Shown here: piece after piece, positions 57,672 through 64,000 of the stretch
How positions within the stretch are numbered: position 1 is the stretch's first letter
How the letters are laid out: every line of letters starts with the position of its first letter
NCBI GenBank assembly: GCA_964057225.1
Contig: OZ059896.1
Coordinates: 12,958,001 to 13,022,000 of the forward strand
Direction of reading: 5' to 3'
Length of the DNA stretch: 64,000 nt
Source of the DNA: Auanema rhodensis
Lineage: Eukaryota > Animalia > Nematoda
Made by a program: the position numbers and the translations under genes
Notes under the pieces: model-generated
Databases searched by the model: none
What the model saw: only the letters and a program-made list of their open reading frames with translations
Told to the model about the DNA's origin: nothing

Positions 57672-57676
57672 ACGTG
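57672..57676 (+). repeat. Left copy of target-site duplication (ACGTG)
   Basis: Left junction is CACATC-ACGTG|CCGTGACC and right junction is CAATAA|ACGTG-TACAATT. Uninterrupted monomers have one ACGTG at this position. The AC could belong to the CAATAAAC tail, so the TSD is 3-5 bp. Confidence 0.8.
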
Positions 57677-57813
57677 CCGTGACCTCATTCCGCGCCGTGA
57701 CCTCATTCCGCGCCGTGACCTCATTCCGCGCCGTGACCACATTCCGCGCCGTGACCTCATTCCGCGCCGTGACCTCATTCCGCGCCGTGACCTCATTCCA
57801 CGCCGTGACCTCA
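57677..57813 (+). repeat. 18-bp GC-rich minisatellite (CCGTGACCTCATTCCGCG) x7.6 at the 5' end of the LINE
   Basis: Units start at 57677, 57695, 57713, 57731 (variant GACCAC), 57749, 57767, 57785 (variant TTCCAC), with a partial unit at 57803-57813. Confidence 0.97.
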
Positions 57814-57889
57814 ACGTGAGCGGTCGTTTGCTGTCAATCAATAGCTGCTGTTCAAGTTTACGCCGGACTGGTTTTTTCAAGGTACGCTA

Positions 57890-58061
57890 CTTTTTTTCTG
57901 TTTTTATACATTTATTCTAATTTTCTTTCATTTTTTCTTTCTTGTTCATTACTCACTTTTTTACTTATCTTTCTCATTTTTATCACCTATCTTTTCTCCA
58001 TTTTCACTTGTTTTTATCTCTCTATTTTTCCTATTTTCATTCACTTTTCTTCAATATTATC
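57890..58061 (+). other. Pyrimidine-rich, nearly G-free tract in the LINE 5' UTR upstream of the ORF1 AUG
   Basis: About 170 nt dominated by T and C runs with very few G. This low complexity explains the F/L/S/H-rich extension of the ORF-track call from TTG 57942. Confidence 0.8.
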
Positions 58062-59117
58062 ATGTCAGTTGTAACAAAAGATTTTTTTACTGAAACACTT
58101 GATGTTCTTTCCAAATCTCTTCGTGATTCTTTTTCACAACTTTCAGCTGAAATTAAAAGCGAGCTGAACAACATTAAAACCAATGTTGCGGCTAATGAAA
58201 TGCGTATTAAAAATCTCGAAGACGATTTTAAGTTACGTATTGAGGGTTTAGAAAAGAAATTTCTCAATGTATCAAAATCTATTGTTACTTCTACCTCTCA
58301 ATCATCCTCTTCTACTGTTCTGTGTCAGGTTCAAAAAGTTAGATCTGAGGAGTCAAAGTTTTCCTATCGTTTGAATAGAGCGGTGTGGTTTCGTGTTCCC
58401 CACGACTCATCCGAACTACCCTCGGACCCCACTTCTCTCCTAAAACTTGTCGTTGAAAAATCTAACGACTCTACTTTGACTTCTCTCATTAACAGCAACC
58501 AAATTACTATAACCCGTTCAACTCTAAAATCTAAATCTCTTGGTCCTCTTGTAATTTCATGTTCAACAGTTGATTTACGTGATAAAATTATTGATATCAT
58601 TAAGTCCAACAAAGCGAAATGCTTTGCTTGTTTGTCAAAAACTTTTATTCGCCGCGACTATCTTCCTTTCGAGGTAGAAATAGAAAAAAAACTACGTGAG
58701 GAAGCTAAAAATAAAAATCTGGACAATGATGAATCAATTTACCTTGTACGCGACCTTAAACTTATCAAAGTTCTTCGTAAACCAACTTCACCCTCTATTC
58801 ATGTGTTCTCAAACATTAATGTTTCTCAAAATGTCTCCAGTCTCTGTCCTGTGGTCCAAAACGACCCTATCGTTTCTTGTCCGTCTGTGTCCGACACTGT
58901 TGTAATATCTAGTCCGCCTTCTAAATCTGGTAGGAATAGCCGCTCAGCGGGTAGATCCAAACCTCTTTCTACGGTTGAGAGATTTTCAATCAGCCCCAGA
59001 AAGAGGAAAAATCCCCCACGCTGTACTAAAACCAATTCCGAGTACCATACCAGATCTAAAAGCGGTTCTAATATAACATCTCAACCTGAGTCTGATACGA
59101 ACAGGTTATTTCGTTAA
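58062..59117 (+). CDS. LINE ORF1 protein, 351 aa (coiled coil, probable RRM/CTD-like nucleic-acid-binding region, basic S/R/P-rich tail)
   Basis: First in-frame ATG is at 58062 (MSVVTKDFF) and the stop is TAA 59115-59117. It has a heptad-like segment (LSAEIKSELNNIKTNVAANEMRIKNLEDDFKLRIEGLEKK). RLNRAVWFRVP, GPLVISC and FIRRDYLPFE loosely resemble the motif order of L1/Transposase_22-like ORF1p. NLS-like SPRKRK. No CCHC knuckle seen. Domain identity is an inference. Confidence 0.85.
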   Translation: MSVVTKDFFTETLDVLSKSLRDSFSQLSAEIKSELNNIKTNVAANEMRIKNLEDDFKLRIEGLEKKFLNVSKSIVTSTSQSSSSTVLCQVQKVRSEESKFSYRLNRAVWFRVPHDSSELPSDPTSLLKLVVEKSNDSTLTSLINSNQITITRSTLKSKSLGPLVISCSTVDLRDKIIDIIKSNKAKCFACLSKTFIRRDYLPFEVEIEKKLREEAKNKNLDNDESIYLVRDLKLIKVLRKPTSPSIHVFSNINVSQNVSSLCPVVQNDPIVSCPSVSDTVVISSPPSKSGRNSRSAGRSKPLSTVERFSISPRKRKNPPRCTKTNSEYHTRSKSGSNITSQPESDTNRLFR

Positions 59118-61950
59118 GGCTTCACAACCTTCTACTACGTCCAGTTCCTGTGTCCCTGTTAATTTTTCTGTTCATTGTTATAATGCACGCTCTATTCTCA
59201 ACAAATTTCATTTTCTTACTACTATCCATAATATTTCATCTCCTGATATCATTGCTATATCAGAATCCTGGCTTTTTTCCAATTTCAACTCTAATCATAT
59301 TCCGCTCGGTAACTATTACAATCTATTCAGAGCCGACAAGTGTACAGCCCGTGGCGGCGGCACTCTTATCTTTATCAAAAAATCAATTAACTCTACCTTA
59401 CTTTCTTGTTCTTCTCAACTTTCTTCTGTTCAATACATCAACATACTCATTACTTCAATTAACACAGTCTTTTCTGTCTGCTACCGTTCTCCTTCTTCTC
59501 TTCATTCCGACTTTTCCTTTTATCTTTCTGATCTTTCTAGTCATATAAAAGCCCGTTCATTTCTCATCACGGGTGATCTCAACTTTCCTTACATCAACTG
59601 GGACCTCTGCGAATCTTCACGCCCCTCTCCCTCCAGTATGTCTATCTTTCAGTTTTTAAAAGATAACTATTCGGATCAACTGGTTAACTTTCCTACTCGG
59701 GGTAAACATATTCTAGACTACATCATCACAAATAACCCTGCTATGGTTAAAAACATACTCCGTTCTTCCCCTTTAGGTAACTCGGATCACTACTCTGTCA
59801 TCTTCTCCATATTCAACAATTCTTGCGTACCTGGATCTGGCTCACTTCCTTCTTCCGTTCTCCTCCACAACAGTTCTTCTCTGTCAAATTTTTCTCAGCT
59901 TAATTTTCATCGTGCTGATTACAATATTATTAATCATTACTTGGCCAGTATCAATTTTGCTACTGAACTTTCTGATCTAACTCCTCTGGACTCCTATACT
60001 AAGTTTATTGAAATTATTCACTCAGTTATCAAAAGGTTTGTTCCCTATAAACAGTCCAAACAAAAAAGCAAAGTCGATAAAGAAATTGCTAGTCTCTCAA
60101 ATTTCATCAACAGACTCAGCTCATCTATTTGTCCTCGAGATGAACTCTATCGTAAAAAATTGACTGTCAAGCTTGACAGGCTTCTTAAGCTTAAATCAGC
60201 GTCCGAAGAAAAAAAAACCGCCGCTCTCAGCAACCCTACAATTTTTTATCGATTCTGTAGAGCCCGTCTTGGAGCATCTACTTCAGATATCCCTACCATC
60301 AAATGTGAAGACAACATCTACTCATCCGACAGAGATAAAGCATCTGTATTCGCAAATACTTTCTTTGTCGAACCAGGTTCTTCATTCAACAAAATTAAAT
60401 ACCCCTCTGCAACTCCCTCCATTATTGATTTTATAGATATTTCTCCGGATAAGGTCTACAAAGTTCTTTCACATCTTCCGCTCAGAGTCTCAACTTCTCC
60501 GGATGGAATTCCTTACTACTTCCTCAAACAATGCGCTACTTCTCTCACTCTTCCTCTTGCTTTTATTTTTCACAATCTTCTTGTTTCTTTAACTTGTCCT
60601 CTTGCCTGGAAAAAAGCCTGGATTCGTCCAATCTTTAAATCCGGCAACCGCTCTACCCCTTCAAATTACCGTCCCATTTCTCTAACCCCTAGTCTCTCCA
60701 AAGTTTTTGAGCGTCTCATTAGCGCTCCCCTTCTTCACTTCGGCATTTCCACGGGCTCAATATCTTCAAACCAACACGCTTTCCTTCCCGGGCGTAATAC
60801 TGTTTCAGCTATAACCAGCAGTCACATTGCTTGGAGATCTTCGATTGACAAAAACATCCCAGTTTTTGTTGCATTCATCGATTTTTCCAAAGCATTTGAC
60901 CTAATTAACCACTCTATTCTTATCCACAAACTTCATTCCACTGGTGTTCGGGGCCCTCTCTTATCCTTTCTCAAAAACTTTATTACAAACAGGTCATTTT
61001 CGGTTTTGGTTAATAACTCTCTCTCCAACTCCACTAATTTATTATGTGGTGTTCCTCAAGGGACTGTCTTGGGTCCTCTTCTTTTTCTTTTTTACATCAA
61101 CGACATCAGTTCTACACTTCCCGATGATGTCCACTCCACTTTATTCGCTGACGACCTTAAACTGTACAGCACCAATCCGGTAAGTCTGCAAACTGCTCTA
61201 AACTCTCTCAATGAGTGGTGCAACAACAACGGAATGAGAGTCAACATCAATAAAACTAAAATAATGGTCATCTCTGACGACCACTCATTCCGAAACAACG
61301 AGGAAATGTTTACTTTTGGTGAGTTTTCCCTGTCTTTGGCTTCCAGCTATAAAGACCTTGGGGTTTTCACTGATCACAACCTTACTTTTGGTAGTCATAT
61401 TAACACTATCAGCAACTTGGCAGCTCAAAAATGCCGCACCATTCTGCGCTGTTTCCATTCCAGATCCCCGACTCTAATGTTTAGACTTTTTTGTTGTTAT
61501 GTCCGCCCCATTCTCGAATACGCATCAGTAGTATGGTCACCTCAAGATGAAAAAAACAAAAGCCGTATCGAGAACGTTCAGAAAAAGTTTTTACGAGCTG
61601 TTTTCTGTAGAGCAGGTACCTTTTGCAGTTATTCCGATCAGCTCGGCATACTGCAGGCTCAGGAATTATCAACCAGACGCTTGGTAACCGATCTGATATT
61701 TTACTTCAACCATATAAAAGACTCAAATACCGAGTTACATTCTAGAATTTTTACTATCAAAAAGTTTTCTCACTCCCTTCGTAGGCACCAATGGAATATC
61801 GACTTTCCTAATCTTCGAAAAAACGCATCAAGAAATGGAATCGAATACAGAGCGATCAAGACATGGAATTCCTTACCCGACAACTTGATTAACCTTGAGA
61901 AAACCGAAAGCTTCAGAAAACACCTCTACAATACTCTACAAACTCCATAA
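59077..61950 (+). CDS. LINE ORF2: apurinic-like endonuclease + reverse transcriptase. Open frame of 957 codons stop-to-stop; the first ATG (59638) lies inside the endonuclease domain
   Basis: Manual translation shows the frame is open from 59077, after TAA 59074-59076. APE motifs: YNARS (59179), IAISESW, RGGG, CYRSP, GDLN, PTR, LDY, SDH. RT motifs: NYRPISL, QHAF, FIDFSKAFD, GVPQGTVLGPLLF, FADD (61144-61155), YKDLGV. No internal stop or frameshift. Confidence 0.95.
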   Translation, partial: HLNLSLIRTGYFVKASQPSTTSSSCVPVNFSVHCYNARSILNKFHFLTTIHNISSPDIIAISESWLFSNFNSNHIPLGNYYNLFRADKCTARGGGTLIFIKKSINSTLLSCSSQLSSVQYINILITSINTVFSVCYRSPSSLHSDFSFYLSDLSSHIKARSFLITGDLNFPYINWDLCESSRPSPSSMSIFQFLKDNYSDQLVNFPTRGKHILDYIITNNPAMVKNILRSSPLGNSDHYSVIFSIFNNSCVPGSGSLPSSVLLHNSSSLSNFSQLNFHRADYNIINHYLASINFATELSDLTPLDSYTKFIEIIHSVIKRFVPYKQSKQKSKVDKEIASLSNFINRLSSSICPRDELYRKKLTVKLDRLLKLKSASEEKKTAALSNPTIFYRFCRARLGASTSDIPTIKCEDNIYSSDRDKASVFANTFFVEPGSSFNKIKYPSATPSIIDFIDISPDKVYKVLSHLPLRVSTSPDGIPYYFLKQCATSLTLPLAFIFHNLLVSLTCPLAWKKAWIRPIFKSGNRSTPSNYRPISLTPSLSKVFERLISAPLLHFGISTGSISSNQHAFLPGRNTVSAITSSHIAWRSSIDKNIPVFVAFIDFSKAFDLINHSILIHKLHSTGVRGPLLSFLKNFITNRSFSVLVNNSLSNSTNLLCGVPQGTVLGPLLFLFYINDISSTLPDDVHSTLFADDLKLYSTNPVSLQTALNSLNEWCNNNGMRVNINKTKIMVISDDHSFRNNEEMFTFGEFSLSLASSYKDLGVFTDHNLTFGSHINTISNLAAQKCRTILRCFHSRSPTLMFRLFCCYVRPILEYASVVWSPQDEKNKSRIENVQKKFLRAVFCRAGTFCSYSDQLGILQAQELSTRRLVTDLIFYFNHIKDSNTELHSRIFTIKKFSHSLRRHQWNIDFPNLRKNASRNGIEYRAIKTWNSLPDNLINLEKTESFRKHLYNTLQTP
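59109..59117 (+). promoter_or_regulatory. Candidate +1 programmed ribosomal frameshift site TTT_CGT_TAA joining ORF1 to ORF2
   Basis: The last ORF1 codons are TTT CGT TAA, and the +1 frame (TTC GTT AAG) is the ORF2 frame. This matches the UUU_CGN +1 slip motif. Function is untested. Confidence 0.55.
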
Positions 61951-62150
61951 TATGATCTAAATAATTAATACGAGTGTTAATTTGTTCACTTTTCATTTTG
62001 TTAATTATTTCTCTTTCCATAGTCATAACCTTGTTCTGTTTTTCTGTTCGTGACAATTGGCAACAGTTTCCTATTTTCATCCCTTCTTTACTCCTTTGTT
62101 ACTTCGTTTCATATCTTATAGACATGAGTCATACGGATTGAACGCAAGTT

Positions 62151-62237
62151 ATCTCCTATTGTTAGAACGGGCTCGGCTCAACTTATGAGTACCTCCGTAC
62201 CTAACAACTACCAACAGGAGATCAGCTTTTATGCTGA
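62151..62237 (+). other. Predicted long stem-loop plus adjacent small hairpin in the LINE 3' UTR
   Basis: Nested pairings: ATCTCCT 62151-57 with AGGAGAT 62216-22; TTGTTAG 62159-65 with CTAACAA 62201-07; ACGG 62167-70 with CCGT 62195-98; CTCA 62177-80 with TGAG 62186-89. Then TCAGC 62222-26 with GCTGA 62233-37. Confidence 0.65.
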
Positions 62238-62404
62238 ACAAACCCCCTGTTTTCTGAAAAAAAAAGGAACTGCTTACAAATATTCACTCTCAGATTAACT
62301 TATTATTTTTATCCACCCTTCATTTTTTTCAATGTTCTTATTGTATGGCTCTTACTCATGTAACTTCTCATTTGTACTAATACCGTTTAGCCTGTAATAC
62401 TGAA

Positions 62405-62420
62405 CAATAAACCAATAAAC
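62405..62420 (+). repeat. 3' terminal 8-bp repeat (CAATAAAC)2 containing two AATAAA hexamers
   Basis: Sequence reads TGAA-CAATAAAC-CAATAAAC-GTGTACA. No poly(A) follows. Confidence 0.85.
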
Positions 62421-62423
62421 GTG
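62419..62423 (+). repeat. Right copy of target-site duplication (ACGTG)
   Basis: Duplicates 57672-57676 and overlaps the last 2 nt of the second CAATAAAC unit. Confidence 0.8.
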
Positions 62424-64000
62424 TACAATTAATTAGCATAAATTAAAGTTCACGTAAATTTCAAAGTCATAGTTACCATGCACCAATATCAATAAAAATT
62501 TGTTCTTAGATTAATATGGACATGGGTAATCTAATTTTGAAAACCGCATCTCTTTATCTTTAACGGGAAGCGAGTTACATACCATGTGCACATCACGTGT
62601 ACAATTAATTAGCATAAATTAAAGTTCACGTAAATTTCAAAGTCATATTACCATGCACCAATATCAATAAAACTTTGTTCTCAGACTAATATGGACATGG
62701 GTAATCTAATTTTGAGAACCGCATTTCTTTATCTTTCACGGGAAGCGAGTTACATACCATGTGCACACCACGTGTACAATTAATTAGCATAAATTGAAGT
62801 TCACGTAAAGTTCAAAGTCATGGTTACCATGTATCAATAAAAATTTGTTATTAGACTAATATTGACATGAGGAATCTAATTTTGAAAACCGCATCTCTTT
62901 ATCTTTAACGGGAAGCGAGTTACCTACCATGTGCACAACACGTGTACAATTAATTAGCATAAATTAAACTTCACGTAAACTTCAAAGTCCCGGTTACCAT
63001 GCACCAATATCAATAAAACTTTGTTCTCAGACTAATATGGACATGGGTAATCTAATTTTGAGAACCGCATTTCTTTATCTTTCACAGGAAGCGAGTTACA
63101 TACCATGTGCACATTACGTGTACAATTAATTAGCATAAATTAAAGTTCACGTAAATTTCAAAGTCATGGTTACCATGCACCAATATCAATAAAAATTTCT
63201 TATTAGGCTAAAATGGACATGAGGAATCTAATTTTGAGAACCGCATTTCTTTATCTTTCACGGGAAGCGAGTTACATACCATGTGCACATCACGTGTACA
63301 ATTAATTAGCATAAATTAAAGTTCACGTAAATTTCAAAGTCATGGTTACCATTCACCAATATCAATAAAAATTTGTTCGTAGACTAATATGGACATGGGT
63401 AATCTAATTTTGAAAACCGCATCTCTTTATCTTTCACGTGAAGCGAGTTACATACCAAGTGCACATCACGTGTACATTTAATTAGCATAAATTAAAGTTC
63501 ACGTAAATTTCAAAGTCATGGTTACCATGCACCAATATCAATAAAAATTTGTTTTTAGACTAATATGGACATGGGTAATCTAATTTTGAAAACCGCATCT
63601 CTTTATCTTTAACGGGAAGCGAGTTACATACCATGTGCACATCACGTGTACAATTAATTAGCATAAATTAAAGTTCACGTAAATTTCAAAGTCATGGTTA
63701 CCATGTATCAATAAAAATTTGTTATTAGACTAATATAGACATGAGGAATCTAATTTTGAAAATCGCATCTCTTTATCTTTAACGGGAAGCGAGTTACATA
63801 CCATGTGCACATCACGTGTACAATTAATTAGCATAAATTAAAGTTCACGTTAATTTCAAAGTCATGGTTGCCATGCACCAATATCAATAAAATTTTGTTC
63901 TTAGACTAATATGGACATGGGTAATCTAATTTTGAAAACCGCATTTCTTTATCTTTCACGGGAAGCGAGTTACATACCATGTGCACATCACGTGTACAAT
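62419..64000. repeat. Same 176-bp satellite array resuming after the LINE (~9 copies); continues beyond the window end
   Basis: ACGTGTACAATTAATTAGC at 62419 continues the monomer interrupted at 57676, in the same orientation and phase. Confidence 0.99.

Follow-up and report, generated by a model that had tools for sequence, protein, structure and literature searches.

The stretch analysed here, 64,000 nucleotides of contig OZ059896.1 from the nematode Auanema rhodensis (assembly GCA_964057225.1, positions 12,958,001 to 13,022,000, forward strand; hereafter the window), carries a CR1-like long interspersed nuclear element (LINE). Its second open reading frame (ORF2), which encodes the endonuclease (EN) and the reverse transcriptase (RT), overlaps the end of ORF1 in the +1 frame and has no ATG until well inside the endonuclease. 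The overlap and the ATG-less ORF2 are real and family-wide features. On comparative grounds we consider it probable that ORF2 is made as a 1295-amino-acid ORF1-EN-RT fusion by low-level +1 slippage of tRNA-Phe at UUU_C, and the site would most likely work like the +1 frameshift signal of influenza PA-X. The features of the element are listed in Table 1.

Structure of the ORF1/ORF2 junction

Preceded by a TAA at 59074, the ORF2 frame opens at 59077; it is in +1 relative to ORF1 and ends at 61950 after 957 codons. Its first ATG, at 59638, is codon 188 and falls inside the endonuclease, and the motifs YNARS, SESW, RGGG, YRSP and GDLN are all encoded upstream of it. ORF2 is poor in methionine (6 in 957 codons), which contributes to the 187-codon Met-free start. 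No ATG was found in any frame between 58900 and 59183, nor in the ORF2 frame before 59638, and an AUG overlapping or near the stop in the manner of SART1 (UAAUG, AUGA) is not present at this junction. ORF1 ends TTA TTT CGT TAA, with the TTT at 59109, and a +1 slip at this TTT gives access to 945 open codons. All coordinates of the initial annotation, which had proposed a frameshift here, were re-derived from the sequence, as were the 41-nt overlap, the ATG-free 187 codons, the ORF1 end and the 1295-residue product (350 + 945). A second in-frame TTT_CGT, within ORF1 at 58389, had been overlooked.

As in the UUU_CGN sites of PA-X and the amalgaviruses, the TTT CGT at 59109 is in frame with ORF1 and the +1 frame continues from it into ORF2. 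With the codon usage of ORF1, TTT_CG is expected by chance among the 13 productive codons of the overlap with p of about 0.017, and TTT_C with p of about 0.08, so that the motif in one copy by itself is no more than suggestive. Counting TTTCGNTAA across the window without regard to frame (1 observed, 5 expected) is uninformative. The E-site UCC, which is stimulatory in PA-X and lies outside the amalgavirus UUU_CGN motif, is absent: the codon before TTT is TTA here, and TCT and TCA stand there in two relatives. No 3' stimulatory RNA structure was predicted in the 73 nt from the stop (-3.6 kcal/mol, z +1.4), and pairing of the junction with the 3' end of the element was not above that of shuffled sequences (-22.2 versus -23.1 +/- 3.7).

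According to the proposed mechanism the majority of ribosomes would translate ORF1, terminate at the UAA and release the 351-residue ORF1 protein (ORF1p). In a small share of them, while UUU occupies the P site and CGU the A site, two codons ahead of the stop, tRNA-Phe would re-pair from UUU to UUC and the ribosome would go on in ORF2. By analogy with influenza PA-X, decoding of the A-site CGU may be slow during re-pairing and the efficiency might be about 1%. Because most ribosomes would stop at the UAA, the ratio of ORF1p to RT should be high, as in gag/gag-pol. Initiation of ORF2 at a near-cognate codon (CTG 59086, CTG 59092, ATA 59095 or ACG 59137), reached by backward reinitiation or internal entry, seems improbable to us. 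All four stand upstream of the endonuclease in its frame, and A occupies position -3 at both CTGs and at the ACG, but none has G at +4, and their place is behind ORF1, some 1.4 kb along the RNA; no conservation was noticed in relatives, though no dedicated test was made.

The junction might also be a defect: a one-base insertion could have broken a formerly fused or ATG-bearing ORF whose copies are mobilised in trans. Junction type often switches between sister lineages, which means that indels at junctions do happen. For the window element such a history is nevertheless very improbable. The junction was recovered on one contig, with no indel, in all four DNA runs (3 organism labels, 3 studies; the contig spans 58823-59418, or to 59230 in run X7), with the reservation that contigs lose rare variants and one of the runs may be the window's own source. 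No substitution or indel was listed at 59077-59117 in the contigs of the four runs, and no other junction was found among the contigs listed at 80% likeness. The same junction is adjoined by two ORF1 variants upstream and two EN/RT variants downstream (62 differences in 412 nt), and ORF2 is intact across its 957 codons. The identical junction in the four runs excludes the possibility, raised in the initial annotation, that this copy alone is mutated.

The substitutions in these contigs also show how the ATG-less stretch is read. Of the 36 substitutions listed from the ORF1 stop to the first ATG, 22 fall on the third position of ORF2 codons, all of them synonymous (binomial p 6e-4; counts from 40 of the 79 rows listed), and in the linker the changes at 59130 and 59133, seen in one run, are both synonymous in the ORF2 frame. 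The ATG-less part of the endonuclease is thus under purifying selection and kept as protein. It follows that ribosomes enter ORF2 either with no AUG or on a processed RNA and, together with the shared junction, that the window copy is not broken. A competing 150-codon frame at 59096-59548 (ATG at 59183) was rejected as coding, since 30 of the 36 listed changes are non-synonymous there (scored over 59118-59637).

In the read contigs the second EN/RT variant covers 59389-61104, differs from the window at 277 of 1710 nt and is connected, near 59419, to the same ORF1 and junction. The pattern suggests that two LINE subfamilies have recombined within the endonuclease.

Junctions of related elements

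LINE loci were taken from metagenome contigs (best 80 of 553) and from eukaryotic-looking contigs in prokaryote genome bins (best 80 of 348), and further loci were added. An endonuclease start was present in 180 of the 289 loci, and in 87 of these together with an upstream ORF scoring on an ORF1 profile (seeds included the window, L002, L085 and L164); 48 distinct ones remained after copies above 75% identity had been merged. The predicted N-termini of 149 ORF2 relatives were left unused because gene callers choose alternative starts. A search of viral contigs yielded nothing useful. Eukaryotic contamination of prokaryote genome bins is evident among loci L081-L160: animal-type LINE contigs occur by the dozen in many GTDB bins, with 40 endonuclease matches in G009 and 32 in G027.

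The 48 junctions comprised 11 overlaps in the +1 frame, 18 in the -1 frame, 13 in-frame arrangements with a single stop and 6 gaps. An in-frame TTT_C starting in the last four sense codons of ORF1 was present in 5/11 +1 overlaps and in 0/37 other junctions (Fisher p 2.7e-4; 1.2e-3 without the window and 1.4e-3 over the last 15 codons); a first pass with a length-only ORF1 rule had given 5/11 versus 0/46. From the codon use of each ORF1, 0.10 such sites were expected (p 2e-5 without the window and one sister). The ORF1 ends in question read TTT CGT TAA in the window, TTT CAG TGA in L003, TTT CAC ACC TCG TAA in L005, TTT CAG TAA in L242 and TTT CGC CAC TAA in L243. The five ORF2s are 26-44% identical and occupy three places in the tree, interleaved with other junction types, the window branch being long and poorly placed. 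This enrichment at the ends of ORF1s that overlap in +1 argues for the frameshift suggested in the initial annotation, and it is on this comparison that we rate slippage as probable.

Several further junctions point the same way. L091, the sister of L243, was classed as a gap by the script (endonuclease frame break) and reclassified by hand: its ORFs overlap in +1, TTT CCC stands six codons ahead of the stop, and about 117 linker codons contain no Met. Any codon able to re-pair in +1 (TTT_Y, CCC, GGG, AAA_R) occurs in 8/11 +1 overlaps and 8/37 others (p 0.003). L275 ends CCC TTT TAG and L107 has CCC TCA; CCC U and UUU UGA are given as +1 sites in PMC3500957. In L005 (1814-1861) a PAM2 motif rises above the Pfam cut-off of 20 bits only via a +1 slip at TTT_C (22.4 versus 15.6 bits).

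PAM2-like (poly(A)-binding-protein-interacting) motifs stand at the C-terminus of ORF1 in one clade, comprising L005, L085 (1640-1700) and the ORF1 end of L164. Pfam found no PAM2 in L085, L164 or the window ORF1 end; the first two resemble it by eye.

The other junction classes carry signals of their own. In the in-frame class all six TGA stops are followed by C and most TAG stops by G, and a further locus reads TGA CTA; TGA followed by C is a leaky stop context. Thirteen CR1-like families have ORF2 in frame behind such a single stop (TGA-C, TAG-G, TAG-C or TAA-G), mostly with no ATG before the endonuclease: L002:1406-1408, L085:1701-1703, L036:702-704, L291:1619-1621 (TGA CTA) and nine more. 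From their sequences these 13 are candidates for stop-codon readthrough in LINEs, one of them Meloidogyne-like (the ORF1 of L002 matches Meloidogyne hapla proteins). In the first pass a loosely defined slippery heptamer turned up in 15 of 20 -1 overlaps, a count made without a control and inflated by long overlaps. Signals that match the frame offset of the junction are expected under recoding and not under reinitiation. We put at about even the chances of a wider interpretation, in which invertebrate CR1-like LINEs as a rule rely on recoding to fuse RT to ORF1 and swap freely among +1 slippage at UUU_C (as in the window element), -1 slippage at heptamers and stop readthrough; the window element would then be the first LINE with a PA-X-type signal, gained independently in at least three lineages.

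At three junctions (L119:3630-3660, L143:3931-3960 and L165) T_TTA_AAC is combined with a stop, TAG in the latter two, and a run of G. The frame is -1 in L119 and +1, with 5 nt of overlap, in L143 and L165, where it probably arises through indels near the G run. L143, L165 and L211, all with short +1 overlaps, failed the ORF1-profile filter and were left out of the 48.

A number of points weigh against slippage at UUU_C. The support for it is comparative and not experimental. The initial annotation had asked for conservation of the motif, and this held in part: UUU_C is the recurring, enriched core, but strict UUU_CGN occurs in just 2/11 +1 junctions. In L002, which is the nearest of the relatives with DNA, the junction has an in-frame TAG, and TTT_C is missing. 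A re-pairable codon is altogether lacking in three of the 11 +1 overlaps. The other four TTT_C families have an ORF2-frame ATG ahead of the endonuclease, 13 nt after the ORF1 stop in L003, 26 nt before it in L005, and 94 and 163 nt after it in L242 and L243, so that no slip is needed there. At the window junction itself near-cognate CTGs lie within the overlap. The comparison covers families below about 37% or above about 85% identity, so that it speaks to distant relatives and not to conservation within the window's own lineage; motif width and the four-codon cut-off were picked after the data had been seen; and the tests ignore relatedness, except where one sister was dropped. Many relatives come from two bins and assembled contigs may hold indels in T runs; the PAM2 result of L005 could reflect such a one-base indel. 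Finally, two of the TTT_C sites read TTTCAG, which is a splice-acceptor consensus.

This last point bears on the idea that cis-splicing or spliced-leader trans-splicing yields an in-frame or monocistronic ORF2 message. The host is a nematode, AG dinucleotides lie upstream of the endonuclease at 59104, 59118 and 59144, and the ORF1 of two relatives ends in TTTCAG. No AG of the window fits TTTCAG, however, three of the five TTT_C sites are different, and a trans-spliced message would remain without an ATG. The two synonymous changes upstream of the AG at 59144 agree, if weakly, with translation of the linker. We therefore give splicing little credence.

Comparison with known systems

PA-X frameshifting is reported to occur at about 0.7-1.3% and to be lost when UUU_CGU is changed to UUC_AGA (PMC3498833), and a stimulatory structure is described as not evident in PMC5009743. 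UUU_CGN has been proposed for amalgavirus polymerase fusions (PMC5052127). The window junction resembles these systems in its in-frame UUU_CGU within a +1 overlap, the lack of a 3' structure and the rarity of the presumed fusion, which in the amalgaviruses likewise bears the polymerase (PMC3498833, PMC5052127). It differs from them in its host, a non-LTR retrotransposon (LTR, long terminal repeat), in an E-site UUA where PA-X has UCC, and in that slippage is so far a prediction from sequence. The stop follows the A-site codon directly and the overlap is 41 nt, whereas amalgavirus overlaps measure 287-968 nt, and the window's relatives have CAG, CAC, CGC or CCC in the A site.

The yeast elements Ty1 and Ty3 are LTR elements that shift at CUU_AGG_C and GCG_AGU_U and have a protease to process the fusion; no protease was seen in the window element. 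As proposed for the window element, they express RT fused to the product of the first ORF through a +1 shift close to its end (PMC5911963). A frameshift inside HeT-A gag is mentioned in the literature.

That well-studied LINEs use reinitiation or coupling, as the initial annotation stated, is true of human L1 and silkworm SART1 but too narrow: TRE5-A and TRE3-A of Dictyostelium are APE-type LINEs whose ORF2 reportedly depends on a frameshift, albeit a -1 shift and in another clade (PMC5911963). L1 and SART1 share with our element a bicistronic LINE RNA, with ORF2 dependent on translation of ORF1 (PMC2881922, PMC2699510), and ORF2 translation in both is reviewed as reinitiation (PMC2881922, PMC2699510, PMC1965478). 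They release a free ORF2 protein, in SART1 through UAAUG, whereas the window junction has no AUG and its ORFs overlap in +1.

Termination at the ORF1 UAA followed by AUG-independent reinitiation nearby, as in human L1, is the main rival to slippage; it would yield free ORF2 protein and leave TTT_CGT incidental. The AUG of L1 ORF2 is replaceable by any sense codon according to PMC1965478, and ORF2 translation in L1 and SART1 needs that of ORF1 (PMC2881922). The ORF1 stop of the window element lies just 46 nt ahead of the endonuclease, and ATG-less ORF2s are seen in all three junction frames. Reinitiation does not, however, predict signals matched to the offset, such as TTT_C with +1 (5/11 versus 0/37) and TGA-C with frame 0, and no UAAUG or AUG stands close to the ORF1 stop. 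We consider it unlikely, and continue to favour +1 slippage.

No LINE with a +1 frameshift at UUU_C came up in full-text literature searches, but most subscription papers lay outside their coverage and an earlier suggestion is possible. The word 'frameshift' is absent from two CR1 surveys (PMC4120745, PMC13343379; word search). How a LINE ORF2 is translated from a bicistronic RNA is settled for L1 and SART1 only, and many CR1-like ORF2s are without a start codon. With a candidate signal of nine bases, one synonymous change is enough to put the question to the test here. If slippage is confirmed, a PA-X-type +1 site, described so far in viruses, would also serve nuclear retroelements, a cellular use that Firth et al. 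left open (PMC3498833). RTs would be made fused to an RNA chaperone, as in gag-pol, and annotation of ORF2 from its first ATG would drop most of the endonuclease.

The element and its setting

ORF2 matches PF03372/PF14529 (apurinic endonuclease-like, APE) and PF00078 (RT), and its best PDB match is L1 ORF2p. With APE followed by RT in ORF2, ORF1 upstream and no LTRs, the element is an APE-type non-LTR retrotransposon. A Pfam scan of it found no RNase H and no C-terminal zinc knuckle. Neither is known from the CR1 clade, whose 3' ends consist of short tandem units and not poly(A). The closest protein relatives of ORF2 are 30-38% identical, and in RT trees the element falls in a clade with an Ancylostoma ceylanicum protein and the Meloidogyne-like locus L002. 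From these relatives, rather than from named CR1 references, we class it as CR1-like. CR1-lineage LINEs of the Jockey superfamily share the APE and RT arrangement of ORF2 and a 3' end in short repeats (PMC4120745).

Table 1. Features of the LINE and its ORF1/ORF2 junction (window coordinates)
Feature	Position	Strand	Remarks
Full-length CR1-like LINE, intact	57677..62418	+	inserted in 176-bp satellite array
18-bp tandem repeat, 7.7 copies	57676..57813	+	5' end of LINE
ORF1, 351 aa	58062 (ATG)..59117 (TAA)	+	S/T/P-rich tail
Second in-frame TTT_CGT, within ORF1	58389..58394	+	+1 frame shuts after 16 codons, dead end
ORF1/ORF2 overlap, 41 nt	59077..59117	+	ORF2 in +1 frame; near-cognate starts CTG 59086, CTG 59092, ATA 59095
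Candidate +1 shift site TTT CGT, then ORF1 stop TAA	59109..59117	+	
S/T-rich linker, ORF2 frame	59113..59163	+	
APE endonuclease	59164..59799	+	Pfam; first in-frame ATG 59638
Reverse transcriptase domain RVT_1	60658..61269	+	ORF2 stop 61948-61950
3' untranslated region	61951..62418	+	two imperfect AATAAAC units at end, no poly(A)

The ORF1 types described for the CR1 clade carry PHD, RRM/Tnp22 or esterase domains. Some CR1-lineage relatives have ORF1s bearing PHD fingers; the window ORF1 gave no significant Pfam match, neither PHD finger nor esterase. Its similarity to the ORF1 of a Meloidogyne hapla-like LINE and to other CR1-like ORF1s is weak. A homologue search with the window ORF1 alone found none, and a two-sequence ORF1 profile recovered four Meloidogyne-like proteins only, ending RTRQA or rearranged. 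PHD fingers were matched by a profile of 15 related ORF1s, which recognised L1 ORF1p just faintly (E 0.1), and were present in 5 of the 15 when scanned.

The satellite flanks the LINE at 1-57676 and 62419-64000, and the 4.7-kb LINE is its sole interruption. The array is homogeneous (about 330 copies, 93% match), and the single insertion lies at a palindromic CACGTG site. A candidate 5-bp target-site duplication, ACGTG, can be read from the sequence at 57672-57676 and 62419-62423, possibly including microhomology at the end. The 18-bp repeat at the 5' end of the LINE is GC-rich and may be an internal promoter array.

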